A stretch of DNA of 64,000 nt from an uncultured Chlorobiota bacterium. Its GTDB lineage: Bacteria; Bacteroidota; Bacteroidia; Bacteroidales; JAADGE01. Position 1 is the first letter of the stretch. Each line of letters begins with the position of its first letter. The translations under genes and the position numbers were made by a program. Of this stretch, positions 24,480 through 45,128 are shown one piece after another. The DNA lies in NCBI GenBank assembly GCA_947311255.1, contig CAMZKL010000016.1:30959-94958 (forward strand), given 5' to 3'. The notes beneath the pieces were generated by a model. The model did no database searches and was not told where the DNA came from. It worked only from the letters and a program-made list of their open reading frames with translations.

Positions 24480-26864
24480 ATGAATAAGTTTTTTTTAGTA
24501 TTTTTCTTTTTTCTTTTTTCTTTAAAATCATTTTCACAACAAGTTTTTGTTGTTGATGAAAATATGAAACCAATTGAGCACGTTGTTATTTATAACGATT
24601 TTCATTCTGTTTTTACAAATTTTATGGGAAAAGCTGATGTAAGTGAATTTGTTGATAATAAGATAATTATATTTAAACATACTTCTTATAAAGATATTCA
24701 TATTTCATATGAAGAAATTAAAAATAACAATTTTACTATTAAATTAACAGAAAGCACACTAAATCTCAATGAAGTTGTGATTTCTGCAAACAGTTGGGAA
24801 CAAAATAAAAATGAAGTCCCTAACAGAATTAATGTAATTTCAAAAAAAGTAATAGCATTTAATAATTCTCAAACAACTGCAGATTTATTGAAAACGTCTG
24901 GCGAAGTTTTTATTCAAAAAAGTCAACTTGGAGGAGGAAGCCCCATGATTAGAGGCTTTTCCGCAAACAGAGTGTTGCTTGTCGTTGATGGAGTAAGAAT
25001 GAATAATGCAATATTTAGAAGTGGGAACTTACAAAACGTTATTTCATTAGATGCAAACTGCATTGAAAACTCCGAAATTATTTTTGGACCTGGTTCAGTT
25101 GTATATGGTAGTGATGCTCTTGGCGGTGTAATGGATTTTCATACTTTAAAACCAAGTTTCTCAAAGCATGATAGCCTTAAATTTTCAGGGAATGCAATGA
25201 TGAGATTTTCATCAGCAAATAATGAAAAAACAGGGCATATTGATTTTAATATAAGTAGAAAAAAAATTTCAAGTATTACAAGTTTCTCATACAGTAATTT
25301 TGATGATTTAAAAATGGGAAATATTGGAAATGAAGAATATAAAAGAACAGAATATGTTGAAACAACAGAAGGTATTGATGTTGTTGTGAAAAATACGAAT
25401 GGAAATATTCAAAAATTTTCAGGATATAATCAAATTAATTTAATGCAGAAAGTTAGTTTTAAACCCACTAAGTTTTGGAACTTAACTTATGGTTTCCATT
25501 ATTCAAAGACTTCTAATGTTCCTCGCTATGATAGGCTTTTGCAATATAGCAAAGGTAAATTAAAATACGCAGAATGGTTCTATGGACCACAACAATGGAT
25601 GATGAATAATTTTACTTTTAAAAAAACAAAAGAAACAGTATTGTTTTCAAAAGCAAAATTAGTATTAGCACAACAAGATTATTCTGAAAGCAGACATGAC
25701 CGGAAATTTGGCAATGCAGAAATAAGAAAAAGATATGAAAATGTTAAGGCTTTTTCAGCAAATCTTGATTTTGAAAAGAAACTTAAAAATAAATTATATC
25801 TTTTTTATGGGACAGAATTTGTTTTAAATAAAGTCTATTCAATAGGAAAAAAAGTTAATATTAATGATGGTACTGAAACAATTGTTGCAAGTCGTTACCC
25901 AAATAATTCTACTTATTCGAGCTTTGCTTCTTATATTTCTTTTAAGAAAAATATTACAAAAAAAATAACTTTTAGTAGTGGAATAAGATATAATAGAATT
26001 TATGCTTATGCAAAATTAGATACAGTATTTTATGATTTTCCTTTTCAGGCAATAGATTTAAATTTAGGTGCTTTTAACGGAAGTGCCGGTTTTGTTTTCA
26101 GACCAGATACTTGGCAAATAAGTGTTAATTTATCTTCCGGATTCAGAGCTCCAAATATAGATGATATGGCAAAAGTTTTTGATTCTGAACCTGGAAGTGT
26201 TATTGTGCCTAATGATGATTTAAAACCGGAACTTGCATATAATACAGATTTTGGAATTGTAAAAATAATAAATAATAAGATTAAAATTGATGTTACAGTA
26301 TTTTATACTTTCTTGAATAATGCACTAATTAGGAAAGACTTTACTTTTAATGGACAAGACTCAATTTTATATGACGCAGAAATGAGCAAAGTTCAAGCCA
26401 TTGTTAATGCTGATAATGCAATTATTTATGGTTTTCAAATTTCATTAAAAGCAGAATTAATTAATAATCTTAATTTATCTTCAAATTATACTTTTACAAA
26501 AGGCTTTGATTCTGAAAATAAACCATTAAGACATGTAGCTCCGGCATTTGGAACTACACATTTAATATTTCAGAAAAATAGATTTAAATTTGATTTGTAT
26601 TCCGAATATAATACTCAAATTTCGGCTGATAATTTAGCTGAATCTGAAAAAAATAAAAAATATATGTATGCTATTGATAATAAGGGTTATCCATATTCTC
26701 CTTCTTGGTGCACTTTTAATATAAATTCTTCATGGAAAATAAATAAAACTTTTACTATAAAAGCCGCTGTTGAAAATATTCTGGACTATAGATACCGTCC
26801 ATATTCTTCCGGAATTGTTGCAGCGGGTAGAAATTTTGTTTTTTCATTGAGGCTTAATTTTTGA
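24480..26864 (+). CDS. TonB-dependent receptor (non-SusC; possibly iron/heme/cobalamin class)
   Basis: LNEVVISA TonB box, SPMIRGF..NRVLLVVDGVRMN plug, GPGSVVYGSDALGGV, GFRAPN, GRNF...NF C-terminus. Confidence 0.92.
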   Translation: MNKFFLVFFFFLFSLKSFSQQVFVVDENMKPIEHVVIYNDFHSVFTNFMGKADVSEFVDNKIIIFKHTSYKDIHISYEEIKNNNFTIKLTESTLNLNEVVISANSWEQNKNEVPNRINVISKKVIAFNNSQTTADLLKTSGEVFIQKSQLGGGSPMIRGFSANRVLLVVDGVRMNNAIFRSGNLQNVISLDANCIENSEIIFGPGSVVYGSDALGGVMDFHTLKPSFSKHDSLKFSGNAMMRFSSANNEKTGHIDFNISRKKISSITSFSYSNFDDLKMGNIGNEEYKRTEYVETTEGIDVVVKNTNGNIQKFSGYNQINLMQKVSFKPTKFWNLTYGFHYSKTSNVPRYDRLLQYSKGKLKYAEWFYGPQQWMMNNFTFKKTKETVLFSKAKLVLAQQDYSESRHDRKFGNAEIRKRYENVKAFSANLDFEKKLKNKLYLFYGTEFVLNKVYSIGKKVNINDGTETIVASRYPNNSTYSSFASYISFKKNITKKITFSSGIRYNRIYAYAKLDTVFYDFPFQAIDLNLGAFNGSAGFVFRPDTWQISVNLSSGFRAPNIDDMAKVFDSEPGSVIVPNDDLKPELAYNTDFGIVKIINNKIKIDVTVFYTFLNNALIRKDFTFNGQDSILYDAEMSKVQAIVNADNAIIYGFQISLKAELINNLNLSSNYTFTKGFDSENKPLRHVAPAFGTTHLIFQKNRFKFDLYSEYNTQISADNLAESEKNKKYMYAIDNKGYPYSPSWCTFNINSSWKINKTFTIKAAVENILDYRYRPYSSGIVAAGRNFVFSLRLNF

Positions 26865-28100
26865 TTTATTAATCTTAATAGTCTTATTTTTTATAATTGG
26901 CTTTGCCCAAAAACTAATGCTTAAAACATAAGCAAGTGCTAAATAATTTAAGAACATTCCTGTTTTTAAACTTGTAAGGTCGCTCAAAAAACCTATTAAA
27001 AGTTGAACAACTGCACCACCCATAATTCCTGTCATTAAAATTCCGGCAAATGAACCGTGATGTTTTAAAACAGAATTTAATGCTAATGAAATTATTATAG
27101 GGTACATTACTGATAAAAACAATCCGCTGACTTGAAATGAATACAAAGAAATTTGTGCTGTTCCGAATAATGCTCCCGTTAAACTTAAAAGAGCAAGAAT
27201 TGTAAATATTTTAAGAACTAATTTACTGTCAATTAATTTTAGTAAAACCAAACCAATTATTCCTCCTATTGTAAGAAGTCCCCAGAAATTTCCAACTGAA
27301 TTTGCCCCAACTGTCTCATAATCAAACCCATGATATACTTGCAGGAACTTTGACATCCAATATGAAATTCCTTGTTCTGCACCCACATAAGCAAAAATTC
27401 CTAAAAAATAAAGAATAACTAACTTGTTTTTAAATAAGTCAAAATAACTTTCTTTTGTTCCGACTTTTTCGTCTTCTTTAAGCTCAATTTTCGGAAAAGA
27501 AAAAAATAAAATTAAAAAAATCATTATTAAACTTGCAATTGCAAATAACCAGTAAATTGATACCCACGACATACTTTCCGGTGTTAAATCTGAAAGTGTT
27601 TTTATGAAAAATCCTTGACTGTTATTATTAATGTTTGTAACTAACCAAGAATAAATTTTAGGACTGATAAATGATGCTGCACCAAAAATTAATTGAGCAA
27701 GAACAGATGTAAAAGCATAATGTTCCTCACCTCCGGCAACTCTGAGTAAAGGGTTTATAACTACTTGTAAAATAGCCATTCCTGTACCGATGGTAAATAA
27801 TGAAAAAATAAAAATTCCGAAAGAAGGCAGTTCAGAAAATAAAATTGAACCCAATAGTGCAAGAACAAATGCAAAAATCATCATTTTTTTAGCACCATAT
27901 TTTTCTAATAGAAAACCTGCCGGAATTGACATTACACCATAAGCAATAAAAAAAGAAAAGGGTAAAAAACCTGCCATTGTTTCGCTAAGACTGAAACTTG
28001 ACGAAACACTCGGATTTAAAGCCCCAAGAATATTTGTTAAAAATGATATTACAAAAAATGTTATAAGTATAAGTAATACAATGGCGTAATTTCTTTTCAT
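26844..28100 (-). CDS. Sugar MFS permease (GluP/FucP-like family), last gene of the PUL
   Basis: FFIAYGVMSIPAG, LQVVINP, GIFAYVGAEQ, SVMYPII, GIMGGAV. Confidence 0.88.
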   Translation of the reverse strand: MKRNYAIVLLILITFFVISFLTNILGALNPSVSSSFSLSETMAGFLPFSFFIAYGVMSIPAGFLLEKYGAKKMMIFAFVLALLGSILFSELPSFGIFIFSLFTIGTGMAILQVVINPLLRVAGGEEHYAFTSVLAQLIFGAASFISPKIYSWLVTNINNNSQGFFIKTLSDLTPESMSWVSIYWLFAIASLIMIFLILFFSFPKIELKEDEKVGTKESYFDLFKNKLVILYFLGIFAYVGAEQGISYWMSKFLQVYHGFDYETVGANSVGNFWGLLTIGGIIGLVLLKLIDSKLVLKIFTILALLSLTGALFGTAQISLYSFQVSGLFLSVMYPIIISLALNSVLKHHGSFAGILMTGIMGGAVVQLLIGFLSDLTSLKTGMFLNYLALAYVLSISFWAKPIIKNKTIKINKSKIKPQ

Positions 28101-28130
28101 TGTTCTATTTTAAATTTTGTAAATAAAAAT

Positions 28131-28162
28131 ATATCTGCCTGTTTTTAAAAACAGACAGATAT
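28131..28162 (-). terminator. Hairpin/terminator between the surface lipoprotein and MFS genes
   Basis: ATATCTGCCTGTTTTT/AAAAACAGACAGATAT inverted repeat with a T-rich tail on the minus strand. Confidence 0.6.
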
Positions 28163-28180
28163 TTATAAGATGCTATTTTT

Positions 28181-29023
28181 CTATGGAATATCAGGATTTG
28201 TTCCTTTTTTCTTAAAACTCCAACCCCAACCTGTTTCTTCCGAATCTAATTGGTCTTGCCACAAAATTAATTGGTTATCTGTTAAAAGTTTTATTTCATA
28301 AGTTCCGTTTATTGTTGTTGCCGGATTTGTACAATCAATGTTATAATCAAGAATATACGGATTTTTAACTGTTAAAGTCATATTTTCGGTATCAAGAATA
28401 AATGTTCCGTGTACACCTTCATCGCCTTCAACATGATGGTATGTATAATTTATTCCTCCGGTTAAATCAAAAACCATTTCCCCGTTTATATCAGGCGTTA
28501 TTTGTACACACTGTCCCCAACTCCAACTTGGTTGCCATCCATCGCCGTTCCAAGCATCAAGTTCTGCTTGATTTCCTGTTTGGTAGCAATAATCCGGTAA
28601 ACCTGTTGCGGGGTCTGTATTATACACCCAGGTTGTTCCGGAACCTGCACCTGTAAGTTCTTTCCACACAGGCATATTTGCAACTTCAGGGTCATTATTA
28701 TCTACTGTAAAAGTTTTTGTTGTTGTTATTCCTTCGCCTCCTGTTCCTGAAATTTTGCAAGAAACCGTATAATCGCCAGCAAAAGGGTAGTATGATGTAA
28801 CTTTCTGTCCTGTTGCTACTTGTCCGTTTCCTAAATCCCATGAAAAAATAAAACTTCCTTCGGATATTGCCGTAAAAACCGGATTGTATGGGTCTGAATT
28901 GTTAATTTTAATTTCTCCTGATGTCGGAGGATTTCCAAGACTGCCAAATTTGTCTTTTTGCGGTTGGCAAGAATAAAGTATCGCCAAAATAAATATTATT
29001 GTAATATATTTTATATGTTTCAT
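28181..29023 (-). CDS. PKD-domain lipoprotein, probable surface glycan-binding protein of the PUL
   Basis: Lipobox LYSC; FSWDLGNG...YYPFAGDYTV PKD pattern; Trp-rich C-terminal half; follows susD. Confidence 0.75.
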   Translation of the reverse strand: MKHIKYITIIFILAILYSCQPQKDKFGSLGNPPTSGEIKINNSDPYNPVFTAISEGSFIFSWDLGNGQVATGQKVTSYYPFAGDYTVSCKISGTGGEGITTTKTFTVDNNDPEVANMPVWKELTGAGSGTTWVYNTDPATGLPDYCYQTGNQAELDAWNGDGWQPSWSWGQCVQITPDINGEMVFDLTGGINYTYHHVEGDEGVHGTFILDTENMTLTVKNPYILDYNIDCTNPATTINGTYEIKLLTDNQLILWQDQLDSEETGWGWSFKKKGTNPDIP

Positions 29024-29039
29024 AATATATGCTTTTAAT

Positions 29040-30515
29040 TTAATAAGGATTTTGTGTTAAATTAGGATTAAGATTTATCTCAATTTGAGGAATCAGAAGG
29101 TATCTTTTATTATCTGTAAAGCCGGTAATTAAATTACCCCTTCCTGTTCTCATTAAATCCCAATATCTGTGTCCTTCCATTGCAAGTTCAACACGTCTTT
29201 CGTGATATACTGCCTCTAATGGGTCGGAAATAGTAGATGTTCCTAGACCAACTCTTGCTCTAACTCTGTTTACAGGTGTTTGCCAGTCTCCGCCAATATG
29301 TGCAGCTGCTTCTGCTTGCCATAATAATACATCTGCAAAACGAATAACATGTAAATTCATTCCCGCTTGGTCTTCTCCGTTTCCTCTTTGGCTTGCCGGC
29401 AATGCTCTTTTTTGATTATAATATCCAGTGTAACTATCTGGATTATGTACGGGGTCTTGCAGGGTATAAAAAGTTTCCTCATCTCCGGTCCCTGCCCATA
29501 ATACTTCTAAATTTGTAATTATTGTAGAATCTCGTCTTGGGTCTGTTGCTTCAAATTCGTCATATAAATCTTGTGTAGGTTGGTCAAATCCCCATCCTCC
29601 GTTTCTGTCATCACGGCTTCTCATAATAACTTCAAGATGTGCTCCTTCATTTTCGTCTAACCAACCCGGCATTTGAAAATCTTTAAATTGAATATCGAAA
29701 ACAGCTTCTACTCCATTATCTGCATCAATTGTAAAGAGATGTCCGTAATCAGTATCTAAATCAAATTCTCCCGAATCAACAACTTCTGTTGCAGCATCAT
29801 AAGCATCTTGCCATTTTTCTTCAAAAATATATGTTTTTGTAAGCAGAGCTTTTGCAGATCCCCAAGTTGCTCTTCCTATTTCTTGTGCCGATAAACTGCT
29901 TTTTTTCGGCAAATCAATAATAGCTTCTTTCAAATCTTTTTCAATTGCTGCATAACATTCTTCAATAGTATTTCTGGGATTAGTATATTCCGAAGGAGCA
30001 AGAATATGGTCAACAATAGAAACTCCGCCAAAAGTTTTCACTAAATTAAACAGATAAAAAGCACGTAAGAATTTTGCTTCTGCAATAACTCTTTTTCCGA
30101 CAACATTGCTAACATATTCATTGCCCGTTACACCTTCTATTAATTTATTTGCCCGGTTTATTCCTATGTAAAAGTCTCTGTATCTTTCATATACTAATGG
30201 GTTTTCGGCATTTGCACTAAAAGTTGTAAGTGCAAAAATTTCTGCATAGTCGCCGTCTCCACCACCGCCTTTTTCTGCATCATCGGAACAAGCATCACCA
30301 ATTGCCCATTCTGTTAATTGAGAATAATTATATCTTCCCAAAGGGTCATAAACTCCTGCCAAAGCATTTAATGCGGCATCATCGTTTGCAAAATATGCGG
30401 CATCTGCCATTGTCGGAGGCGGAGTATTTAAAAAATCTTTTGTATTACACGATTGTATCACAATTATTGTGAATAAAAGTGATAATGATTTTAATATTAT
30501 TTTTTTTATGTTCAT
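29040..30515 (-). CDS. susD: SusD/RagB family lipoprotein
   Basis: Lipobox IQSC; EAKFLRAFYLFNLV, IRFADVLLWQAEA, ERRVELAMEGHRYWDLMR, NPNLTQNPY. Confidence 0.93.
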   Translation of the reverse strand: MNIKKIILKSLSLLFTIIVIQSCNTKDFLNTPPPTMADAAYFANDDAALNALAGVYDPLGRYNYSQLTEWAIGDACSDDAEKGGGGDGDYAEIFALTTFSANAENPLVYERYRDFYIGINRANKLIEGVTGNEYVSNVVGKRVIAEAKFLRAFYLFNLVKTFGGVSIVDHILAPSEYTNPRNTIEECYAAIEKDLKEAIIDLPKKSSLSAQEIGRATWGSAKALLTKTYIFEEKWQDAYDAATEVVDSGEFDLDTDYGHLFTIDADNGVEAVFDIQFKDFQMPGWLDENEGAHLEVIMRSRDDRNGGWGFDQPTQDLYDEFEATDPRRDSTIITNLEVLWAGTGDEETFYTLQDPVHNPDSYTGYYNQKRALPASQRGNGEDQAGMNLHVIRFADVLLWQAEAAAHIGGDWQTPVNRVRARVGLGTSTISDPLEAVYHERRVELAMEGHRYWDLMRTGRGNLITGFTDNKRYLLIPQIEINLNPNLTQNPY

Positions 30516-30527
30516 AACTTTAATGTT

Positions 30528-33572: not shown

Positions 33573-33603
33573 ATGTTTTGTTTATTAATTATTGTTTCAA
33601 ATT

Positions 33604-34644: not shown

Positions 34645-34662
34645 AATGAATGAGTATTTGAT

Positions 34663-34690: not shown

Positions 34691-34703
34691 ACATTAAGTT
34701 AAA

Positions 34704-35537: not shown

Positions 35538-35562
35538 AATAAAAAAATTTAAAAGTGAATAA

Positions 35563-36675
35563 TTAATTAAAATTTGCTGATGAAATAAAAATTTCATTGC
35601 TTATTGATTGTTTATATGCGTTAAGTGCCTCCGGAGAACTGTCAATTCTAAGAAGTGTTGTTCCAAAGTTTTCATTCCAATATGAAACGGCTTTAATTTC
35701 TGGGTAAAAATTTCCGTTTTCTTTAACAGAATTTAAAGCATTTGTAATCCATTGCGGTTTTTGATGTGCTTCATTATCAACAACTCCCCATTCAAGTATT
35801 GCAATTGGTTTTCCTGTTGCGGAAATTGATTTTACTTCATTCCAACCGTCGTTTAAAATGTTTTGAAATTCGTTCCAATCATCATTTGGTTCTTGTTTTC
35901 CATATACACTGATTCCAATCCAATCTATATAATCGTCACCAGGATAGTATCCTTTCATGTTATTCCAACTTGTTTCAGGATTTGAGTAAATATCAATATG
36001 AAAAAACCATGTTATGTTTATTGCACCTTCATTATTACAAATGTCAATTATGTGTCTGTATGCATCTCTGAAACGTTCCATTCCGTCGTATAGATTATTG
36101 GCTCCGTATTCATTTTTTGTGTTTCTTCCGTTATATTCTGCATTCCAAGGAAACCAATCTCCGTTAACTTCGGTGCCGAATTCAACGAGCAAAGGGATTT
36201 TTGTGTTTTTTGCTTCTTTTGCCCAAAGTTTTAGGTCGTTATCAAAGTTTCCGTCAATAAATTTTTGCATTGTGTAAACCGGGTCTGGTCCTCCTTCGTT
36301 GAAATTTGACCTTGGCATCATTCTTATAAAAGGTATTCTTCCTAAATTATGAATGACAGAAACTTCCTGGGAGGGAAATTTAATTCCCCCTTTTTCAGAA
36401 GTCCAATTGTTTGAAAAATAAACCCAAGTTAATTGTTTGTTTGCTAATGTTTCAAAATCTGTAATTCTGTTTTGTGTAACAATATCTTCTGTTCCGCCTA
36501 AATCCGGAAAAGCAGAATGATATATTTTATTATTTTCGGGTATTGCCAATTTCATTCCTGTTAAGTCTGTTGTGTCACCTTCAACAGGTTTAATTGGTTC
36601 CGGTCCTTTGCAAGAAGAATTTGCAAAAAGGAAAAAACTTATTGTTATGAATAAATATTTTGTTTTATTTTTCAT
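35563..36675 (-). CDS. GH26-like glycoside hydrolase lipoprotein
   Basis: Lipobox NSSC; EFGTEVNGDWFPW (acid/base region), YYPGDDYIDWIGISVY, KPIAILEWGV (nucleophile region). Confidence 0.82.
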   Translation of the reverse strand: MKNKTKYLFITISFFLFANSSCKGPEPIKPVEGDTTDLTGMKLAIPENNKIYHSAFPDLGGTEDIVTQNRITDFETLANKQLTWVYFSNNWTSEKGGIKFPSQEVSVIHNLGRIPFIRMMPRSNFNEGGPDPVYTMQKFIDGNFDNDLKLWAKEAKNTKIPLLVEFGTEVNGDWFPWNAEYNGRNTKNEYGANNLYDGMERFRDAYRHIIDICNNEGAINITWFFHIDIYSNPETSWNNMKGYYPGDDYIDWIGISVYGKQEPNDDWNEFQNILNDGWNEVKSISATGKPIAILEWGVVDNEAHQKPQWITNALNSVKENGNFYPEIKAVSYWNENFGTTLLRIDSSPEALNAYKQSISNEIFISSANFN

Positions 36676-36678
36676 TTT

Positions 36679-38292: not shown

Positions 38293-38304
38293 AACTTTTA
38301 TTTA

Positions 38305-41169
38305 TTATTGATATTTATCTTGAACAATAAAAGGTTGTTTCCCTTCTAAATCTTCTTTTGAAAATTTTGCAGTTATAGTTTTTTCTTCTCCCGGTAAAAG
38401 GATTAAAAAGTTGTCAGACCAAAATGTCGGTAAAACTTCTTCTCCATTTTTTCCTTTTGTTATCATTAATCTTTTCATAAAAGCAAGTTTTTTACTTGTA
38501 TTTTTAACTATAACAGTTGCCATAATTTCATTTTCTTCGTCTTTAAGAGTTGATTTTATAACTAAGTTAACATTTTCAAGATTTGCTAAATCCGTAAAAT
38601 CTACTCTTTTTGAGAGTTCTTTACTGTCAAGCCTTGCACGTTTTAAAGCTGCATAAACTTTTTTGTCAAGTTTGTTGCTTTCGGGAGCAAACCAATAGAA
38701 ATTGTCGGATAAAATGTTGTTTTTGTCGTCTTTCAGAATTAATTTTACAAAATATGTTGATTTTATATTTTGTGGTTTTTTTACAGAAAATACTTCTGTA
38801 TATTTATTTTCTTCTATGTTTAAATTTTCTTCTTTTTCAGAAATTACATTTAAATTAAAATCATAAACTTTAACAGATACTTTTAAGTTTTTATATTGCT
38901 TGTATGTTGCATTAATAACAGAAACTTTAAAATTATTTTCATTTAGTTGAATATGAAGTGGTTCCATTGCTTTTTTTGCAAAATAATATGCCGAAGTAGG
39001 GTTTAAATACCAATCGTAAAGTTGCCAAACAACAGTAGGCCATGTTGAATTAAGTTTCCATAACATTACTCCGCTTGTAATGTCCCACATTCTGTGATTT
39101 GCAGCTTCGTACATTGCTCTGTAACTTGCAGCATTAATATATTGTGCATTTTTTATATATTCTTGAGCGGTTTTTGGTTTTCCGTATCGTGAGCGTAAAG
39201 CAACATCGTATGCTCTGTACACATATCCGTCATCGTCCCATGCTCCGTGATGTGCCCATTTTTTATTCAAAGGATAAATGTCTGTTTTTTCTGATTTTTC
39301 AATATCATTAATAAACTTTTTCATGCTCGTGTATGTAGGAACGGAAGGTACACCGAGTTCATCTCTGAACATTTGTTGTTTAACAGATAAAACCATATCG
39401 TAATAATACTTGTGAGGGTACCATGTGTAGTCGGGAGCACCGTCGTCGGTTATACCTAATGGTAGATCTTCTTTCATATAGGGGGTTAATTTGTCAACAT
39501 CCCAGTCGTAGCTGGAAGTTGGGACAAATTCTCCTGTAGGATGATTTTGTTTTAGAAGTTTTTTTACAGGGTTATATATTTCTTCTCTAACGATTGTTTC
39601 GCATTGAAGCGTCCAAAGAGATAGGGAAGGGTGGTTTCTGTATCTTTTAATAATATCGTCGGCATTACTTATCGCTAAATCGGCATCTTTAGGGTTTGCA
39701 AATGATGCTGTTCCTGGGTAAGATGTCCAACACTGGAAGAATGTTTCCCACATCATAAGTCCGTATTTATCATATGTTTCCATGACATATTCGGGAGGCG
39801 AAGGCATATCTTCATTTGCAATCATTACAACATTTGCGTTTGCCAAAAGTCTTGCTTCATTGTACATTCTTTTTGGGTTCATATTAAGCATCATATCTGG
39901 TTGTAACCATCCGCCTCTAGCAAATATCTTTTTCCCGTTTACCCAAAATATTCTCCCGAATTCACCGTCAATTTCTTTTAATGTATTTGTAAGTTCTCTG
40001 ATGCCGAATGTTGTTTCGCTTATATCGGAAATTTTTTTGTTTTTAATAAATTCCAATTTTAATTTATGAAGGTTTTGATTTCCGTAACCGTTTGGCCACC
40101 AAAGCAAGGGGTTTTTAATACTTAATTGTGGAAAGTCATTGTAATCAACACTTACGGTTATTGTTTTGTTTGCAGGAATTTCAACTTGTTTTTCGAAAGT
40201 TATTGTTTTAAAATTACCTTTCATTTTTTTCTTATAGCTGTAAAAATCAACTTCTTTTACAAAATCAATTGTTCCTTTTATTTTTCCTTTAACAGGTTTG
40301 TTAGAAGTATTAATAAGTTCGGCACTAATTGTTAAGTCTGCTTTTGTTGTGTCCGGCAGGTTAAGTTTTGTAATAATATACGGGTTTGTAATATCAACAT
40401 CATTTGTAAATGTTAAAAATACATCTTGATAGATACCCATATTTCTGTCTCTTACAACGGGAGCACAATCCCATCCGGCAGAAAATTTAAGAGTTGCATC
40501 TTTAAATATTTCTGTTCCCCAACCTCTTTGAGGTCCGAAAACTTCTAATTGAGCACCCGGATATGGAGTTCCGATGTTATCAACTTGATAAATTTTTACG
40601 GCAAGTATATTTTTTTTATCTTTATTTACATAATCAGTAATGTTAAATTTGTATCTTTTAAACATTCCGACCATATTTTTTGCATTGGTTAGTTGTTTTC
40701 CGTTAATCCAAACGTCTGCTCTGTAATTTATTCCGTCAAAATTTAACCAAATATTATTGTTTGTGTTTTCTTTTTCGATATTAAATTCAGTTCTGAACCA
40801 ATAGGGGTTTTTAAAAGGATTCGGATGGTTTTTGATATGTGAATATTTTTCTAAATTTAAGCGTTTGTTTAAAGAGTCGGAAGCATCAGGAATAAGGAAA
40901 TTGTTTAAATCAAAATGCGGATCGGGGTAAATATTTGCATTAACAAGAGCTCGTAAAACTGTTGTAGGGACTTCCACGTTTAACCATTTTTCATCTTTAA
41001 ATTGCGGTGTGGAAATTTCTTTATCTTTTTCTGGTATTTTTAGTGATGATATTAATTTCCAATCTTTTAGAAATTGTTTTTTGAAGATGTCTTTATTTTT
41101 GTTATCTTTATTGCAAGAGAAGAAAGATAATAATATGATTATTAATATGTTAATTTTTATATTTTTCAT
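38305..41169 (-). CDS. GH2 lipoprotein, exo-beta-D-glucosaminidase (CsxA)/beta-mannosidase-like
   Basis: VPTTVL, WLNFDGINYRADVWING, RDRNMGIYQDV, LWWPNGYG, RYRNHPS, GVMLWKLNSTWP...WQLYDWY...AKKAMEPLHIQ, WSDNFLILLPGE. Confidence 0.85.
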   Translation of the reverse strand: MKNIKINILIIILLSFFSCNKDNKNKDIFKKQFLKDWKLISSLKIPEKDKEISTPQFKDEKWLNVEVPTTVLRALVNANIYPDPHFDLNNFLIPDASDSLNKRLNLEKYSHIKNHPNPFKNPYWFRTEFNIEKENTNNNIWLNFDGINYRADVWINGKQLTNAKNMVGMFKRYKFNITDYVNKDKKNILAVKIYQVDNIGTPYPGAQLEVFGPQRGWGTEIFKDATLKFSAGWDCAPVVRDRNMGIYQDVFLTFTNDVDITNPYIITKLNLPDTTKADLTISAELINTSNKPVKGKIKGTIDFVKEVDFYSYKKKMKGNFKTITFEKQVEIPANKTITVSVDYNDFPQLSIKNPLLWWPNGYGNQNLHKLKLEFIKNKKISDISETTFGIRELTNTLKEIDGEFGRIFWVNGKKIFARGGWLQPDMMLNMNPKRMYNEARLLANANVVMIANEDMPSPPEYVMETYDKYGLMMWETFFQCWTSYPGTASFANPKDADLAISNADDIIKRYRNHPSLSLWTLQCETIVREEIYNPVKKLLKQNHPTGEFVPTSSYDWDVDKLTPYMKEDLPLGITDDGAPDYTWYPHKYYYDMVLSVKQQMFRDELGVPSVPTYTSMKKFINDIEKSEKTDIYPLNKKWAHHGAWDDDGYVYRAYDVALRSRYGKPKTAQEYIKNAQYINAASYRAMYEAANHRMWDITSGVMLWKLNSTWPTVVWQLYDWYLNPTSAYYFAKKAMEPLHIQLNENNFKVSVINATYKQYKNLKVSVKVYDFNLNVISEKEENLNIEENKYTEVFSVKKPQNIKSTYFVKLILKDDKNNILSDNFYWFAPESNKLDKKVYAALKRARLDSKELSKRVDFTDLANLENVNLVIKSTLKDEENEIMATVIVKNTSKKLAFMKRLMITKGKNGEEVLPTFWSDNFLILLPGEEKTITAKFSKEDLEGKQPFIVQDKYQ

Positions 41170-41184
41170 TTTGTGTTTTATTAT

Positions 41185-42069
41185 TTATAAAGCTAATGCT
41201 GCTGCACCGATAAAGCCGGCATAGTCTCCGAGTTCTGCAAAAACAATTTTTATTTTTTGTGCAGGGACTTCACAAATGTTTTTTAATAATTGTTTTTCGG
41301 TATGTTTTAAAAAGAATTTTCCAGCATTAGAAATTGAGCCTCCTAATATTACAATTTCAGGGTCTAAAATATTTATGCTCCATGCCATTGCATAAGCTAA
41401 ATGTTCTCCGAATATTTTCCAAGTTTCCAAGGCATCTTTATCATTATTTTCGGCAAGTTTAAAAATTTCGACAGATTCCATGTCTTTTCCCGACACGGAT
41501 TTGTAAATTTTTGAAACGCCTTTTCCTGAGATGTAATCTTCAATTATTCCAGATTTGTACGGAGAAATCCAAATTTCACCAGCAGTTTGGGTTGCACCAT
41601 TTAGAATTTTACCGTTAATAATTACTGCAGCTCCAAAACCTGTTCCCAAAGTAAAACCTAATACATTTTTTTTGGATTTTCCTGCTCCGAAAATAGTTTC
41701 GCCGAATATTAAGCAATTAGCATCATTATTAATAAATACTTTTGTATTAAAATAATTTGCAATTGTATGTTGTAACGGAAAATAATTCATGGTAGGAAGT
41801 TGTGGACATTCCAGAATTATTCCTGTTTTTATGTCCAAAGGACCTGTTGTTCCGATTCCAATTCCGGCAATATTGTTTATGTTAACTTCTAATCTGTCAA
41901 AAATAGTTTCAATACTTGACGTTATTCTTTGAATAATTCTTTCAGATGGGTCATGCCCGTCGGTCGGAATCTTAACAGGAACGCATAAAACTTTACCTTT
42001 TTCGGATATTGCACCTGTCATAATTTTAGTTCCGCCTAAATCAACTCCTATGTATATTTTTTTTGCCAT
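41185..42069 (-). CDS. ROK family sugar kinase
   Basis: IGVDLGGTKI, GIGIGTTGP, INNDANC, TLGTGFGAA, AGEI, LGGSIS, AGFIGAA; no HTH domain. Confidence 0.92.
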   Translation of the reverse strand: MAKKIYIGVDLGGTKIMTGAISEKGKVLCVPVKIPTDGHDPSERIIQRITSSIETIFDRLEVNINNIAGIGIGTTGPLDIKTGIILECPQLPTMNYFPLQHTIANYFNTKVFINNDANCLIFGETIFGAGKSKKNVLGFTLGTGFGAAVIINGKILNGATQTAGEIWISPYKSGIIEDYISGKGVSKIYKSVSGKDMESVEIFKLAENNDKDALETWKIFGEHLAYAMAWSINILDPEIVILGGSISNAGKFFLKHTEKQLLKNICEVPAQKIKIVFAELGDYAGFIGAAALAL

Positions 42070-42083
42070 ATTAAGGTTTTTGT

Positions 42084-43136
42084 TTATTCAACAGCTGTTA
42101 CTTTTGCTCCGTGTGAAAAACTGCCGGCTTCAAATCCTTTATTTTTTGCATATTCATCAATATAAAGCTGAATGGGTATTATACTTTCAATTGAAAATAA
42201 GAATTCATCTTGTTCCGGTATATTTAAGATTTTTATTTTATTGTTTGAGATATTTATTTCTGAATTAGTAATAATTAAAACTTTGCCTCCGAAGTTTGCA
42301 ATATCTTTTGCCATTTTTAGGTTTTGCTCAAAAGTTTTTCCTTTTGGAATAAATATTATTGTTTTTACACCTTCTTGAACCATTTCTATGGGGCCGTGTC
42401 TGAATTCTCCACCGAAATATCCGGTTGCCGCAACTTTAATGGCTTCTTTAAACATTAGACTGCTTTGCATTGCGGAAGCATAGGCAGGTCCTCTTGCAAT
42501 TATTTGTATTGTTTCTATGTTGCCGAAAAAATAAATGTGTTTTGAAATGTTTTTTTGATAAAAATTAATTCTTTCTTCAACATCAATAATTAATTTTTTG
42601 ATTTTTTTAATTTTACTGTCATTCCATTCATCATTTATGTACCATGCAAAGATGTATGTTACAAGAAGTATTGAAACAAATGTTTTTGTTGATGTCATTT
42701 TTTCCTGTCCTGCATTACTGTACAATGTATAATCTGATTTTTTGTCAAGAGTACTGTTTTTGGTATTTGTAATTCCTAAACATTTAACTTTTTTAGGAAT
42801 ATTTTTTAATATTTCAACGACTTCGTAGCTTTCTCCTGATTGAGAAAAGCAAACGAGAAGTGTTTCCTTATTAAGCACTTGAAAATTATAATGTAATAAT
42901 TCGCCGGCATTAATTACAAAAGTACTTATTCCCATTTTGCTGAATATATTTGATGCTGCAAAAGATGTGAAATAAGAACTTCCCATTCCCGTAAAAATTA
43001 TTTGCTCAAATTCATTGTTTCTCAGCATTCTTTTCAGTGCGGATAAAGTTTTTAAATTATCTTCATTTAAATACAGTTTTAGTGTATTTTCTAATGCTTT
43101 CGGTTGTTCTGTAATTTCTTTTAAAAATAAGTTCAT
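42084..43136 (-). CDS. Stand-alone double-SIS protein of the GlmS isomerase-domain type (putative hexosamine-6-phosphate deaminase/isomerase)
   Basis: KEITEQP, GMGSSY, SQSGES, TSTKTF, FKE...GEFRHGPIEM; no glutaminase domain; start MNLFLKEI at 43136 overlaps the upstream stop (TAATG). Confidence 0.85.
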   Translation of the reverse strand: MNLFLKEITEQPKALENTLKLYLNEDNLKTLSALKRMLRNNEFEQIIFTGMGSSYFTSFAASNIFSKMGISTFVINAGELLHYNFQVLNKETLLVCFSQSGESYEVVEILKNIPKKVKCLGITNTKNSTLDKKSDYTLYSNAGQEKMTSTKTFVSILLVTYIFAWYINDEWNDSKIKKIKKLIIDVEERINFYQKNISKHIYFFGNIETIQIIARGPAYASAMQSSLMFKEAIKVAATGYFGGEFRHGPIEMVQEGVKTIIFIPKGKTFEQNLKMAKDIANFGGKVLIITNSEINISNNKIKILNIPEQDEFLFSIESIIPIQLYIDEYAKNKGFEAGSFSHGAKVTAVE

Positions 43137-44059
43137 TATTTTACTTTTATCATTTTTAAATTCCAAATAGTTTTTTCTTTATCAAGTGCATGTGAGTATG
43201 ATACATATAGTTTATTGTCAATTACATACTGGAAAGCACATGCATCATTATTTGAAAGTATCGGATTGTTTTTTGCTCTTTTGTAATTGCCGTCTATTTT
43301 ATCGGAATAAAAGGCATTAGTAACCCATTTTCCGGATAGTTTTCCGGTGTCAAATTCTTCAACTAAAAGATAGTATGTATTGTTATAAAATGCTATTGAA
43401 GGAGCAGCAATGGTTTTTGATAAAGAAATTATGAATTTTGGTTTGCTGTCTTTAAGTTTTAAAATATTATTTGATTTTTTTATGGCAATATTCCATTTTT
43501 TGTTTGTTTTTGCTCTTTCAGTACCGTTATAATAAAAGAGATAAAAATTATTGTCGTTTTTATTAAAATAAATAAAAGGGTTTTGGTTTTGTTTTCCTTT
43601 TTCAAAAGGCACAATAACTGTCTTATTGTTGAAGTCTGTTCCGTCTTTGCTTGTCTGCATTACAATTCTGCTGTCATAAGATTTATTATATTCAGCATAA
43701 AACATATAAAAAGTTTCATTTGCAAAAATAACTGTCGGCCATCTGCAATTTTTATTTATTATTGGGTTGTGTTCATATTTTTCCCAATATTCTAAATCGT
43801 TGCTTCTGGCAAGACCGCTTTTTTTTACCAATGGATTTGTGTTGTTATAGTGGTCCAATCCGTAATATGCCCAATATTTATATCCGTCTTTATTGGCTTC
43901 AACAATTGAAAATGTGTGTACTTTATTTGCATCCCAATTGCATTTGTCTCCTTGTAAAATTACTGAATTCCAAACAATTGACGGATATTCATTTTTTTGA
44001 GCAAATGTTTTAGCTCCGAATATTAAAAATATTAATAGACTTAATTTTAGGGTTTTCAT
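43136..44059 (-). CDS. Secreted five-bladed beta-propeller protein of the GH32/43/130-like superfamily
   Basis: Signal peptide; repeated blades YWAYY, GLARSNDLEYWEK..NPII, FYMFY, SKDGTDF, FYLFY, YYLL, NNPIL. Confidence 0.65.
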   Translation of the reverse strand: MKTLKLSLLIFLIFGAKTFAQKNEYPSIVWNSVILQGDKCNWDANKVHTFSIVEANKDGYKYWAYYGLDHYNNTNPLVKKSGLARSNDLEYWEKYEHNPIINKNCRWPTVIFANETFYMFYAEYNKSYDSRIVMQTSKDGTDFNNKTVIVPFEKGKQNQNPFIYFNKNDNNFYLFYYNGTERAKTNKKWNIAIKKSNNILKLKDSKPKFIISLSKTIAAPSIAFYNNTYYLLVEEFDTGKLSGKWVTNAFYSDKIDGNYKRAKNNPILSNNDACAFQYVIDNKLYVSYSHALDKEKTIWNLKMIKVK

Positions 44060-44237
44060 TTGTATAAGTTTGTTTAATTAATTCATTTTAAATAAGTTGC
44101 TTGTGCGTTCGTATTTATAACACTTGTGTTGTTTTTATATTGGAACATTTGCTTTTTTGCAAGTAATTTGTATGCCTGTTTATAGTTATACCCTTGTGTG
44201 TCAAAATTTTGGAATGGGTATTTTATTTTATTAAAAT

Positions 44238-45020
44238 TTATACAGTTGTAATTTTCACTCCTAATTTTTCATACATTGATAATTCGGTATCTGTCATTTT
44301 TTTTGTAGTTATTATTTTATCAAGTTTTTCAATTTTAGAGATTACTGCCAAACTACGTCTTCCGAATTTAGATTCATCTGCAAGCAAAATAATTTCGCCG
44401 GAAACATTTATCATTGTCTGTGTTGTGCTTGCTTCGTTTATGTTTGGAGTTGTTAATCCGTGTTCAAAATCAATTCCGTCTGTTCCTAAAAACAGTTTGC
44501 CGGAAGATAATCTTTTCAAAACGGTTTCTGCCAAGGGTCCGATTAGTGTTAATGTGTCTTTAAAAAGGTTACCTCCTGTTAAAATTACTTCAATATTTGA
44601 ATTTATTAATTCAACTGCTATATTTAAAGCATTAGTAATAACAGTTATGTTTTTTTTGTTAAGTATTTCTTTTGCTAATAAATTTGTGGTTGAACCGGAA
44701 TCTAAAATTATTGTATCTCCTTCTTTAATCAACTTTGCAGCTTCTTTTACGATTCTTAATTTTTCATCAAGAAATATTTTTTCTTTTTCGGTAAGAGCTA
44801 AACCTCTAAATAACTGATTGTTTTTTATAGCTCCTCCGTGTGTTCTTTTTAAAGCTCCAGACTTTTCTAATACAGCTAAATCTTTTCTGATGGTAACAGC
44901 TGTTGTATTGAATTTTTCAATAAGGTCATTTGTTGAAATCCTATTTTTTTTATCAAGAATTTTTAAAATTTCCTCTCTTCTTTCTTCTTGAAAAATGTTA
45001 TTTTCACTTACATACTTCAC
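44238..45020 (-). CDS. DeoR/GlpR family repressor, AgaR-like
   Basis: ERREEIL, TIRKDL..LE, RTHGGA, IILDSGST, ITNALNIA, LLADESKFGR; GTG start. Confidence 0.92.
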   Translation of the reverse strand: MKYVSENNIFQEERREEILKILDKKNRISTNDLIEKFNTTAVTIRKDLAVLEKSGALKRTHGGAIKNNQLFRGLALTEKEKIFLDEKLRIVKEAAKLIKEGDTIILDSGSTTNLLAKEILNKKNITVITNALNIAVELINSNIEVILTGGNLFKDTLTLIGPLAETVLKRLSSGKLFLGTDGIDFEHGLTTPNINEASTTQTMINVSGEIILLADESKFGRRSLAVISKIEKLDKIITTKKMTDTELSMYEKLGVKITTV

Positions 45021-45066
45021 TGCACTATCTTTTAGTTTTGCATTTAAAATAATTTACTAGTATTTA

Positions 45067-45096
45067 AGTTCGTTTACTTTCGTTTACTTTCGTTTT
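45067..45096 (-). promoter_or_regulatory. Tandem 10-bp repeat operator, AgaR-type CTTTC-N5-CTTTC
   Basis: AGTTCGTTTA CTTTCGTTTA CTTTCGTTTT directly downstream of the predicted -7 box of the deoR-led operon. Confidence 0.7.
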
Positions 45097-45097
45097 G

Positions 45098-45128
45098 CAA
45101 TTATAGGACATTTTTTTAATTTTACAAA
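45098..45128 (-). promoter_or_regulatory. Bacteroidota -33/-7 promoter of the PUL
   Basis: Minus strand TTTG-19 nt-TATAATTG (consensus TTTG-N19-21-TAnnTTTG, one mismatch). Confidence 0.6.

Follow-up and report, generated by a model that had tools for sequence, protein, structure and literature searches.

The 64,000-nt window analyzed here contains 13 co-oriented genes on its minus strand (26844–45020), and this cluster raises the question of which glycan it degrades and how the released sugar reaches central metabolism. An earlier note had described the cluster as a polysaccharide utilization locus (PUL), and this identification was borne out. The gene list, order and strand given there, from the DeoR regulator through the MFS transporter, were all matched by profile searches and open reading frames (Table 1), and the reported lack of NagA, NagB and tagatose aldolase held for all 13 products (0/13 matches). 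The PKD gene and the MFS gene, the last of the locus, are separated by a terminator-like hairpin (28162–28131). The true start of the SIS protein is likely to be the ATG at 43136, which yields a protein of 350 aa.

Table 1. Genes of the locus, with coordinates in the window and the underlying evidence
Feature	Coordinates	Strand	Evidence
DeoR-family regulator (HTH_DeoR + DeoRC)	44238-45020	-	DeoRC 170 bits, HTH_DeoR 60 bits
Secreted five-bladed beta-propeller, 307 aa	43136-44059	-	AF2 model; 0 Pfam/NCBIfam matches
Stand-alone GlmS-isomerase-type SIS protein	42084-43166	-	GlmS model 190 bits
ROK-family sugar kinase	41185-42069	-	ROK 196 bits
GH2 lipoprotein with C-terminal Ig_GlcNase domain	38305-41169	-	profile matches; CsxA 230 bits
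Lipoprotein, N-terminal GH114_assoc + GH26	36679-38292	-	GH114_assoc 119 bits, GH26 41 bits
GH26 lipoprotein, second copy	35563-36675	-	Lic26A-like GH26 domain
Secreted CBM4_9 protein with T9SS C-terminal sorting domain	34704-35597	-	CBM_4_9 38 bits, Por_Secre_tail 48 bits
DUF4434 lipoprotein	33604-34644	-	DUF4434 211 bits
SusC-type TonB-dependent transporter	30528-33572	-	TIGR04056 872 bits vs cut-off 368
SusD-family lipoprotein	29040-30515	-	SusD_RagB 104 bits, SusD-like_3 71 bits
PKD-domain lipoprotein	28181-29023	-	PKD 24 + 22 bits, both below cut-offs
MFS sugar transporter, GluP/FucP/NagP type	26844-28100	-	MFS_1 106, gluP 103, NagP 78 bits

The synteny search for which the earlier note had called was performed with the propeller protein as query, and 50 metagenome loci retrieved in this way, each 8 kb or longer, were examined. 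The gene order recurs across many environmental bacteria, as SusC-SusD-PKD-DeoR-propeller-SIS-MFS-ROK-GH2-DUF4434, and the module was also found in G004, G044, G401 and L019. Among the 50 loci, SIS was present in 49, ROK and MFS in 43 each, GH2 in 42 and DeoR in 41, followed by SusD and PKD (28 each), SusC (27) and DUF4434 (26). GH26-like genes (6/50) and CBM4_9 genes (4/50) were rare. The MFS gene of the sister loci is located between SIS and ROK, and its product is about 30% identical to that encoded here. The PKD orthologues (53–64% identity) follow SusD in 28 loci and travel with SusC/SusD; the PKD lipoprotein is probably a surface glycan-binding protein. As the same order is found on dozens of independent metagenome contigs, the grouping is beyond chance. 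The locus belongs to a new type of PUL that is widespread in Bacteroidota and neighbouring phyla.

The substrate could well be a beta-linked glycan that consists of, or contains, a non-acetylated 2-amino-2-deoxy-hexose. We tentatively favour this hexosamine reading as the best one; the simplest case would be glucosamine, in the form of chitosan-like or partly de-N-acetylated material. The conservation of the module counts in its favour, and so does the SIS protein, which aligns with the isomerase half of the GlmS model only (model positions 246–607). The equivalents of GlmS S303, S347, Q348, S349, E488, H504 and K603 were retained in 50 of 50 SIS orthologues, and the C-terminal tail is GlmS-like (GAKVTxxE). 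Lys603, the Schiff-base residue, and this tail serve the amination chemistry of GlmS. In PMC10201695, the catalytic residues named for SIS-fold GlcN6P deaminases are S303, S347, E488 and H504. Two results count against the assignment: the K485 position is occupied by Met in all 50 orthologues, and the protein reaches none of the NCBIfam equivalog cut-offs (GlmD 78 of 580 bits, NagB-II 74 of 430). It is presumed to be a hexosamine-6-phosphate deaminase/isomerase.

The gene content of the source genome (94.5% complete) is in line with such a role. In this genome PF01182 (NagB) and GH20 were not found, and no NagA exceeded the cut-off (best score 25 bits), which leaves the SIS protein as the sole deaminase candidate detected; a full-length GlmS is encoded elsewhere (827 bits). 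The regulator also points to an amino sugar, as its best NCBIfam model is AgaR (226 bits, below the cut-off of 260); it is likely a sugar-phosphate-sensing repressor of the locus. The ROK kinase reaches no equivalog cut-off (glucokinase subfamily, 158 bits versus 260). Further genes come from the sister loci: the locus in G044 contains a GH20 together with a true CsxA-type GH2 (RLEG and GSD motifs), and a NagB-like gene lies downstream of the locus in L019. Four loci encode an N-acyl-D-glucosamine 2-epimerase (607–684 bits, cut-off 600). Judged by their profile matches, these accessory genes appear to encode hexosamine enzymes, which counts for an amino sugar. Two points weigh on the other side. 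Both G044 and G401 have NagA and PF01182 matches elsewhere in their genomes, so the SIS protein is not the sole route there, and no recognised chitosanase family is encoded in the locus described here.

The same genes can be read in terms of a neutral beta-mannoside or beta-mannan, the alternative named in the earlier note. The GH2 would then be a beta-mannosidase variant, DUF4434 and GH26 would be mannanase-like, the propeller would be a GH130-like hydrolase of beta-mannosides, ROK would phosphorylate mannose, and SIS would isomerise the hexose phosphate to fructose-6-phosphate without deamination. Sodium:solute symporters and AGE-family genes in some sister loci are compatible with this proposal, but the AGE genes are the four epimerases mentioned above, which score only 55–75 bits with the cellobiose 2-epimerase model. 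The source genome already contains ManA for the isomerisation of mannose-6-phosphate, a task for which the SIS protein is thus not required, and the Schiff-base lysine and the GlmS tail kept in 50/50 orthologues also count against the proposal. On these and the following results, we regard a beta-mannan target as unlikely.

The GH2 lipoprotein yielded mixed results. Its best match among solved structures is CsxA (229–231 bits, compared to 134 bits for a beta-mannosidase). In the alignment, E394 of CsxA corresponds to E453, S468-D469 to C523-E524 and E541 to E604, and Arg392 is replaced by Ala. In all 46 orthologues the CsxA Glu394 site is occupied by a Glu-Asp pair, in place of the Trp of mannosidases and the His of most GH2s. 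According to PMC6566704 and PMC12243196, Glu394 of CsxA binds the C2 amine. This residue argues for an amino sugar and against a mannoside. In contrast, the Ser-Asp motif, described in PMC12243196 as strictly conserved in glucosaminidase subfamily GH2_16, is lacking in all 46 orthologues. At the position before the acid/base Glu, 19 of them have Asn, 17 have Ile, 6 Cys and 4 Val, and the canonical Asn-Glu of those 19 sequences would fit a mannosidase. In a FastTree phylogeny of 35 rows, the Glu-Asp clade (SH-like support 100) adjoins mannosidase-like GH2s with Trp/Asn-Glu, and the two true CsxA-type sequences fall outside, which counts against the amino sugar and for beta-mannan. One of the Trp/Asn-Glu sequences, from L027, is encoded in a PUL with a 121-bit GH26, and its best PDB match is also CsxA (199 versus 152 bits). 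The best match to CsxA therefore says little about the substrate. With the Ser-Asp motif lacking and a clade of its own, the GH2 is not a CsxA-type enzyme. It is presumed to be an exo-beta-glycosidase for a C2-modified sugar.

These results also bear on chitosan (beta-1,4-GlcN) as the specific target, which would make the GH2 an exo-glucosaminidase resembling CsxA and would give the GH26-like or DUF4434 proteins a role as new endo-chitosanases. Every point in favour of a hexosamine applies here as well, the GH2 has its best PDB match in CsxA, and the GH26 domains as well as DUF4434 retain the two catalytic Glu residues. However, the GH2 lacks the Ser-Asp motif, and 44 of the 50 loci lack GH26 genes. 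In G044 the Glu-Asp GH2 adjoins the true CsxA-type GH2 and GH20, which suggests a specificity other than plain exo-beta-1,4-glucosaminidase. We know of no chitosanase in GH26, and no report of one was found in the literature searched on chitosan, PULs and DUF4434. No result identifies chitosan as the substrate, and we consider it an improbable target.

The two GH26 lipoproteins are paralogues (57–58% identity). Their domains match the Clostridium thermocellum lichenase Lic26A with 77–84 bits (84 bits for the copy at 36679–38292), far above mannanases (about 25 bits), and the pair of catalytic Glu residues is conserved. In the copy at 35563–36675, E109 of Lic26A corresponds to E169 and the second catalytic Glu to that of an LEWG motif. 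The GH114_assoc domain, named by Pfam after the GH114 glycoside hydrolases with which it is associated, counts for an amino sugar. Lic26A as the best PDB match, together with the 38-bit CBM4_9, might indicate a mixed-linkage or other neutral beta-glucan. This seems very improbable, as the GH26 (6/50) and CBM4_9 (4/50) genes are lineage-specific additions, and glucose would require neither a dedicated SIS protein nor this GH2, so that a beta-glucan target would not account for the conserved core. For beta-mannan, too, lichenase-like GH26 domains in 6/50 loci speak against the proposal. The absence of GH26 genes from 44 of 50 loci makes them accessory to the locus type, and they cannot be its general endo-enzyme; in the earlier note, the endo step had been assigned to the GH26-like or DUF4434 proteins.

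The DUF4434 protein is predicted to fold as a clan GH-A (beta/alpha)8 barrel, in which E179 and E287 are invariant across 17 sequences. The top structural match is 4h41 (BT_0435; Z 32.4, 278 aligned residues), followed by a GH5 beta-mannanase (21.4), GH164 (21.0) and CmMan5A (20.4). The closest characterised folds are thus GH5 and GH164 beta-mannan enzymes, which favours beta-mannan and counts against an amino sugar; the margins are small, with GlmA at 19.8 and PgaB at 18.2. The protein is presumed to be a retaining beta-glycosidase.

The propeller protein has a visible signal peptide and was modelled with five blades (AF2 pLDDT 87.5). Its VIA Z-scores were 26.2 and 26.1 for GH43, 26.0 for GH159, 25.2 for the Flavonifractor plautii GalNAc deacetylase 6n1b (269 aligned residues) and 23.2 for GH130. 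The model resembles GH43, GH130 and GH137, and no family could be assigned. Relatives at 50–70% identity are numerous, and H48, H290, D43, D272, E123, E181 and E234 are invariant in the family. The likeness to GH130 would suit beta-mannan, but GH130 phosphorylases are cytoplasmic, whereas this protein carries a signal peptide. The near tie of 6n1b with the top matches (25.2 versus 26.2) leads to another possibility, namely that an N-acetylated substrate, e.g. a bacterial wall polymer with GlcNAc or ManNAc, is de-N-acetylated by the propeller in the periplasm before GH2 frees the amino sugar. This would explain how such material could be used although no NagA was detected in the genome, and the invariant His, Asp and Glu residues would fit. 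However, a propeller profile searched against PDB sequences (best E for any entry 1.9e-4) showed no likeness to the deacetylase, weak GH43 matches are listed among the precomputed Pfam annotations of many homologues, and the spacing of D43, D169 and E234 appears to resemble the GH43 triad. We thus rate this variant as quite unlikely; the propeller is presumed to be a periplasmic glycosidase.

Returning to the hexosamine reading, the locus probably supplies central metabolism with an amino sugar by means of several enzymes of putative activity; the sugar, every activity and the location of each step are inferred. Oligomers would be captured and imported by SusC, SusD and the PKD lipoprotein, and would be trimmed to the monomer by the GH2 lipoprotein, the DUF4434 barrel and the secreted propeller. 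In this lineage, the two Lic26A-like GH26 lipoproteins and the T9SS-secreted CBM protein would be added at the surface. The MFS transporter would bring the monomer into the cytoplasm, the ROK kinase would convert it to the 6-phosphate, and the SIS protein would form fructose-6-phosphate and ammonium, with the DeoR repressor sensing the sugar phosphate. Taken together, the PUL and the MFS/ROK/SIS route from monomer to ketohexose-6-phosphate and ammonia proposed in the earlier note stand, the latter as plausible, given that the catalytic set, as listed in PMC10201695, is complete in 50/50 SIS orthologues. A CsxA-type GH2, a general endo role of GH26, chitosan as the substrate and the analogy to the Shewanella Aga pathway find no support or are weakened.

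That pathway consists of AgaR, AgaK, AgaS and AgaP. Like the locus, it forms an amino-sugar module with a DeoR regulator, a ROK kinase, a SIS deaminase and a GGP-type permease, but with regard to protein families the analogy does not hold: the AgaS model yields 37 bits (cut-off 529), AgaR remains below its cut-off, and tagatose-pathway genes are absent. The GlmS-like character of the SIS protein speaks for fructose-6-phosphate as the product. The Bacteroides beta-mannan loci contain GH26, GH130, a 2-epimerase and a symporter, and the locus family shares GH26, a five-bladed propeller, AGE genes and sodium:solute symporters with them. It differs in that its epimerases are of the N-acylglucosamine type, its propeller is secreted and not assignable to GH130, and its GH26 genes are lichenase-like and rare.

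Regarding single proteins, CsxA of Amycolatopsis orientalis (GH2_16, PDB 2vzs) and the GH2 share the multidomain layout including Ig_GlcNase, the nucleophile Glu and Glu at the Glu394 site. They differ in the Ser-Asp motif, which is Cys-Glu here and Ile, Asn or Val plus Glu in orthologues, and the locus GH2 falls into a clade of its own that is closer to Trp/Asn-Glu GH2s. BT_0435 of Bacteroides thetaiotaomicron (PDB 4h41) has the family and fold of the DUF4434 protein (24% identity, 55 bits by sequence) and was deposited as 'putative alpha-L-fucosidase'; no functional report, including for BT_0435, was found in the literature searched under DUF4434 and PF14488. Shewanella NagB-II, Thermococcus GlmD, the GlmS isomerase domain and the locus SIS share two SIS subdomains, the phosphate-binding Ser, the Glu488 base and the ring-opening His504 (PMC10201695). 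The locus SIS is nearer to GlmS (190 bits) than to GlmD (78) or NagB-II (74), all below cut-offs. It lacks the glutaminase domain of GlmS and keeps the C-terminal tail with Lys603, before which PDB alignments to the shorter deaminases end.

The chitin route of Thermococcus kodakarensis comprises a deacetylase, the exo-glucosaminidase GlmA, a kinase and GlmD. It is described in part in PMC6566704. It uses GH35 instead of GH2 and an ADP-dependent kinase instead of ROK, whereas the locus has a SusC/SusD outer-membrane system and no recognisable deacetylase. Nevertheless, the logic of the proposed route is the same: free GlcN, released by an exo-glucosaminidase, would be phosphorylated and then deaminated by a SIS protein, without a NagA/NagB step.

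The gene content, order, and strand of the locus listed in the earlier note were confirmed with Pfam and NCBIfam: 13 co-oriented genes run along the minus strand and encode a DeoR regulator, a propeller protein, a stand-alone SIS protein, a ROK kinase, a GH2, two GH26-type proteins, a CBM4_9 protein, a DUF4434 protein, SusC, SusD, a PKD lipoprotein, and an MFS transporter. A TIGR04056 match of 872 bits with an adjoining SusD_RagB gene, five glycosidase-like genes, and a regulator gene, all on one strand, identify the locus as a PUL. The translations of the GH2, both GH26 proteins, the DUF4434 protein, SusD, and the PKD protein have lipoprotein-type N-termini, whereas the 307-aa propeller protein carries an ordinary signal peptide. 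The CBM4_9 protein bears a T9SS tail, the first GH26-type protein has an N-terminal GH114_assoc domain (119 bits, Pfam), and the PKD-like match of the PKD lipoprotein is weak. The transporter is of the GluP/FucP/NagP type. The PKD gene and the MFS gene are separated by a terminator-like hairpin of 14 pairs, and the MFS shares only about 30% identity with its counterpart in sister loci, which is located there between SIS and ROK. The MFS gene may therefore form a unit of its own or have replaced another. A promoter scan yielded 111 sites compared with 93.7 ± 7.9 in shuffled sequence; as the sites are no more common than in shuffled sequence, no promoter is claimed.

The genes flanking the locus are housekeeping genes or unrelated. 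A gene for a 794-aa TonB-dependent receptor is convergent with the locus; at their ends, this gene and the MFS gene share 21 bases. Elsewhere in the window, two 279-aa proteins without a Pfam match are encoded after a second SusC/SusD pair (1043 and 498 aa), and there is no glycosidase nearby. At the window edge, a He_PIG Ig-domain protein longer than 1465 aa and a 1776-aa protein with a pentaxin-like domain are encoded.

Coordinates of the locus, of genes discussed individually, and of neighbouring and related features
Feature	Sequence	Position	Strand	Remark
Locus of 13 genes	window	26844-45020	minus	
Propeller gene	window	43136-44059	minus	
SIS gene	window	42084-43166	minus	
GH2 gene	window	38305-41169	minus	
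Hairpin	window	28131-28162	minus	
TonB-dependent receptor gene	window	24480-26864	plus	
Second SusC/SusD pair and two 279-aa proteins	window	49287-55650	plus	
He_PIG and pentaxin-like genes	window	1-10098	minus	He_PIG protein extends past the window edge
Lone GH26-like ORF (L004)	G011:C178	4706-5668		also in G003, G009, G010, G012, G013, G018
Split GH2 orthologue	L021	11-2784		
Variant locus (L047/L048)	G044:C62	about 69600-88950		
CsxA-signature GH2 region	L037	10001-16628		Paludibacter MAG

Next, the recurrence of the locus was analyzed. Among close relatives, the whole locus was found only in G004, a genome of the same genus, with protein identities of 87–96%, and the other genomes of the genus contained just one lone GH26-like gene. 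The N-terminal part of this ORF of about 350–360 aa aligns with the last 70 residues of the GH26 proteins encoded in the window and its remainder with residues 210–460 approximately; these swapped matches suggest that the (beta/alpha)8 barrel is circularly permuted. With the GH2 as query, species-representative genomes gave 24 loci, four of which had a GH2 identity of 62–94%. One of the four, in a Flavobacteriaceae MAG (L019), has the order DeoR-propeller-SIS-MFS-ROK-GH2 beside a divergent SusC/SusD pair. In L021, the GH2 orthologue (62% identity) is split over two adjacent frames, which cover query residues 7–466 and 469–952; the split reflects either a frameshift or a fault in the assembly. 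When 400 other genomes were sampled evenly across the phylum, the propeller was present in two (G044 and G401). In both, DeoR-propeller-SIS-(MFS)-ROK-GH2 precedes a gene for a TonB-dependent receptor of about 972 aa.

When metagenomes were scanned with an alignment of the 307-aa propeller family, 80 loci were obtained, and the 50 loci with a length of at least 8 kb were analyzed. Homologues of SIS were present in 49 loci, of the propeller, the query itself, in 47 (the ORF caller missed the remaining three), of ROK and MFS in 43 each, of GH2 in 42, of DeoR in 41, of SusD and PKD in 28 each, of SusC in 27, and of DUF4434 in 26. These counts are lower bounds, because many contigs stop within the locus. 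The gene order shared across loci was SusC-SusD-PKD-DeoR-propeller-SIS-MFS-ROK-GH2-DUF4434. GH26-like and CBM-T9SS homologues were found in only 6 and 4 of the 50 loci, respectively, and thus both GH26 proteins and the CBM protein are additions of a few lineages. Taken together, the window locus represents a conserved locus type rather than a chance grouping, and its core glycosidase candidates are the propeller, the GH2, and the DUF4434 protein.

The propeller family is well conserved, with many relatives at 50–70% identity, most of them unnamed. The AF2 model is five-bladed (pLDDT 87.5). The window protein had no match in Pfam (E up to 0.01) or NCBIfam, although many of its homologues have precomputed matches to PF04616 (GH43). 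Structural comparison placed it close to GH43 (Z 26.2 and 26.1), GH159 (26.0), the F. plautii GalNAc deacetylase 6n1b (25.2), GH137 (24.9), GH32 (24.4), and GH130 (23.2), and with Foldseek and VIA-align the matches were nearly tied across many families. The family profile reached a top E-value of only 1.9e-4 against PDB sequences, with 3.5e-4 for GH43 and 0.0047 for the GH130 chain 9fj8, and the phmmer E-values were marginal as well. Assignment to a single family was set aside because of the missing Pfam and NCBIfam matches, the marginal profile E-values, and the tied folds. In three related loci (L087, L113, and L122) the propeller gene is tandemly duplicated.

The SIS protein matched the GlmS model with 190 bits, but only at model positions 246–607, the isomerase half. 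The glutaminase domain is absent, and in an alignment with the full-length GlmS that the genome also encodes (827 bits), the protein begins at the isomerase domain. Alignments with this GlmS and with family members showed that the C-terminal tail is GlmS-like. The equivalents of Ser303, Ser347, Gln348, Ser349, Glu488, His504, and Lys603, the Schiff-base residue of GlmS (GlmS numbering), were kept in 50 of 50 sequences, and Lys485 was replaced by Met in all 50. Four of the kept residues, Ser303, Ser347, Glu488, and His504, are described in PMC10201695 as the catalytic set of NagB-II, a GlcN-6-P deaminase with a SIS fold. The scores were below the curated equivalog cut-offs of both GlmD (78 versus 580 bits) and NagB-II (74 versus 430 bits), and PDB alignments to these shorter deaminases stop before the C-terminal tail of the SIS protein. 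As it falls under every curated cut-off, the SIS protein is a member of neither characterised type of SIS deaminase. The pathway of the Shewanella Aga type, which the earlier note had invoked as a parallel, was not recovered: AgaS scored 37 bits (cut-off 529), AgaR, the top NCBIfam model for the DeoR regulator, scored 226 bits (cut-off 260), and Pfam and NCBIfam revealed neither an aldolase nor a tagatose kinase among the 13 locus products.

The source genome, which is 94.5% complete, contained no match to NagB (PF01182), nothing above 25 bits for NagA, and no GH20, and it encodes a class I ManA. In the absence of NagA and NagB matches, the SIS protein is the only candidate hexosamine-6-phosphate deaminase found in this organism, and the presence of ManA means that it is not needed for mannose. 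NagA and PF01182 matches were also missing elsewhere in G004. In contrast, both occur elsewhere in the genomes of G044 and G401, which counts against the SIS protein as the sole route. Our preferred reading, to which we give somewhat less than an even chance, is that the PUL serves a beta-linked glycan from which a free, non-acetylated amino sugar is released, with glucosamine as the simplest candidate. The MFS would bring the free amino sugar into the cell, the ROK kinase would phosphorylate it, and the SIS enzyme would deaminate the phosphate to fructose-6-phosphate.

The 954-aa GH2 was assigned to its family by five GH2-related Pfam domains above the cut-off, and the TIM-barrel model reached 19.5 bits compared with a cut-off of 21; an Ig_GlcNase domain is also present. 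Its top match among solved structures was CsxA (229–231 bits, compared with 134 bits for beta-mannosidase). As a control, the GH2 of L027 was analyzed, which is of the Trp/Asn-Glu type and sits in a PUL with a 121-bit GH26. It also matched CsxA best in the PDB (199 versus 152 bits). Overall similarity to CsxA is therefore no guide to the substrate, and the best PDB hit was ruled out as an argument.

Individual residues were compared in HMMER alignments. E453 of the window GH2 corresponds to Glu394 of CsxA, Cys523-Glu524 to the acid/base motif Ser468-Asp469, and E604, the Glu of FRDELG, to the nucleophile Glu541. Glu394 binds the C2 amine according to PMC6566704. For GH2_16 glucosaminidases, PMC12243196 describes Ser-Asp as "strictly conserved" in place of Asn-Glu, and a Glu at the position of His in other GH2s and of Trp in mannosidases. 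The Glu-Asp pair, which sits where CsxA has Glu394, was invariant in the 46 GH2 orthologues of the conserved module, and the catalytic Glu residues (equivalents of the acid/base E524 and the nucleophile E604) were kept throughout. The residue preceding the acid/base Glu was Asn (19), Ile (17), Cys (6), or Val (4), and the Ser-Asp motif of GH2_16 was found in none of the 46. More distant relatives (33–38% identity) have Arg-x-Trp-Gly and Asn-Glu, and two sequences, the GH2 of L037 and the second GH2 of G044 (G044b), bear the RLEG and GSD motifs that mark the true CsxA type.

A FastTree phylogeny was calculated from 35 uncharacterised sequences, namely 18 of the 44 distinct Glu-Asp sequences (random picks plus four genomic ones), all 15 Trp/Asn-Glu sequences, and both CsxA-type sequences. 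In the midpoint-rooted tree, the Glu-Asp GH2s formed a single clade (SH-like support 100) that adjoined the Trp/Asn-Glu sequences, and the two CsxA-type sequences fell outside the group holding both other types. Judged from its sequence, the window GH2 thus belongs to a distinct GH2 clade with an acidic pair at the site that recognises C2 substituents, and, despite the Glu at the Glu394 position, it is not a member of GH2_16. The placement beside the Trp/Asn-Glu types points to a manno-configured substrate. It is one of several features that bear on a different reading, according to which the substrate is a neutral beta-mannoside; we regard this as unlikely.

The DUF4434 protein was assigned with 211 bits to PF14488 (cut-off 30), and two Glu residues, E179 and E287, were invariant among 17 sequences. 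Its structure model (pLDDT 84.2) matched BT_0435/4h41 (Z 32.4), followed by clan GH-A enzymes, namely a GH5 beta-mannanase (21.4), a GH164 beta-mannosidase (21.0), the exo-mannosidase CmMan5A (1uuq, 20.4), chain 5gsm, which we take to be the archaeal glucosaminidase GlmA (19.8), and PgaB (18.2). The margins among the matches below 4h41 are small. The nearest characterised folds are thus those of beta-mannan enzymes, a second feature in favor of a manno-configured substrate. The literature searched yielded no functional report on DUF4434, PF14488, or 4H41.

Both GH26 proteins reached 41 bits with the Pfam model (cut-off 20.2). Their domains matched the lichenase Lic26A with 77–84 bits and mannanases weakly. 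In the 370-aa protein, E169 corresponds to E109 of Lic26A, and the Glu of an LEWG motif to the second catalytic Glu. No functional data on the GH114_assoc domain were found in the literature on GH114 and carbohydrate-binding modules. In the chitosan version of the earlier note's proposal, the GH26 or DUF4434 proteins would be new endo-chitosanases. This version is possible, but the position of the GH26 genes outside the conserved core argues against it, and the role proposed for the GH26 proteins was not upheld as a feature of the locus type.

The sister loci contain several accessory genes. An AGE-family gene follows DUF4434 in five of them. Four of these genes scored 607–684 bits with the N-acyl-D-glucosamine 2-epimerase equivalog (cut-off 600) and 55–75 bits with cellobiose 2-epimerase, and the fifth scored 346 bits. 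The NCBIfam scores ruled out mannobiose or cellobiose epimerases. A NagB-like protein (1045 bits) is encoded a few genes downstream of the locus in L019, sodium:solute symporters were present in three sister loci, and Sugar_tr transporters in two. The order in G044 is DeoR-propeller-SIS-ROK-GH2(Glu-Asp)-TonB receptor-T9SS protein-GH20-GH2(CsxA type)-FGE-sulfatase-domain protein-T9SS protein, so that its extras are a GH20, a true CsxA-type GH2, an FGE-sulfatase-domain protein, and T9SS proteins. This variant lacks SusD; as a lead only, the T9SS protein after the TonB receptor resembles a right-handed beta-helix in the Atlas. In L037, the CsxA-signature GH2 is immediately followed downstream by genes for a ROK kinase and SusC, and this locus is a candidate for a bona fide chitosan-type PUL in Bacteroidota.

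The common theme of the accessory genes is hexosamine metabolism rather than mannan metabolism. The ManNAc/GlcNAc epimerases, and the presence in G044 of a true CsxA-type GH2 and a GH20 alongside the Glu-Asp GH2, also point to a manno-configured substrate. Together with the GH2 tree and the DUF4434 folds, these features keep the neutral beta-mannoside reading alive and suggest a mannosamine-type substrate as well. In the latter case, the Glu-Asp GH2 would be a beta-mannosaminidase of beta-mannosidase-like ancestry, the SIS protein a mannosamine-6-phosphate deaminase, and the substrate a bacterial wall polymer that contains ManN or ManNAc, such as a secondary cell-wall polymer or a teichoic-acid linkage unit, attacked by the propeller, DUF4434, and Glu-Asp GH2 proteins. 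The invariant change of Lys485 to Met would then belong to a SIS family specific for ManN-6-P. This proposal would unite the resemblance of the GH2 and DUF4434 proteins to mannosidases with the amine-type Glu-Asp pair, and also the four sister-locus 2-epimerases with the CsxA-type GH2 and GH20 of G044, but we judge it to be the right one with only a small probability, lower than that of a neutral beta-mannoside.

PULs are the chief means of complex-glycan turnover in Bacteroidota, and each PUL type that is solved usually adds enzyme families and a carbon source not recognised before. In the case of this locus, the carbon source would also be a nitrogen source. If the substrate is indeed a non-acetylated hexosamine glycan, as in our preferred reading, the locus would show how Bacteroidota use such cationic polymers without NagA or NagB, would reveal new activities for GH2 and GH26 and a function for DUF4434, and would provide new enzymes for the processing of chitosan or cell-wall glycan.

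The locus type is found in reference genomes of several lineages as well as on many independent metagenome contigs, and the source names include a Proteiniphilum isolate, a candidate cultured carrier. No description of this gene combination was found in the searched literature, and searches on chitosan PULs (glucosaminidase, SusC, Bacteroidota, GH2) likewise retrieved no account of one. PULs and SIS deaminases are kinds already known. New is the conserved combination, here in a genome without NagA or NagB matches, of three core glycosidase-like proteins with a stand-alone GlmS-type isomerase, which, by its sequence scores, differs from the two characterised types of SIS deaminase.
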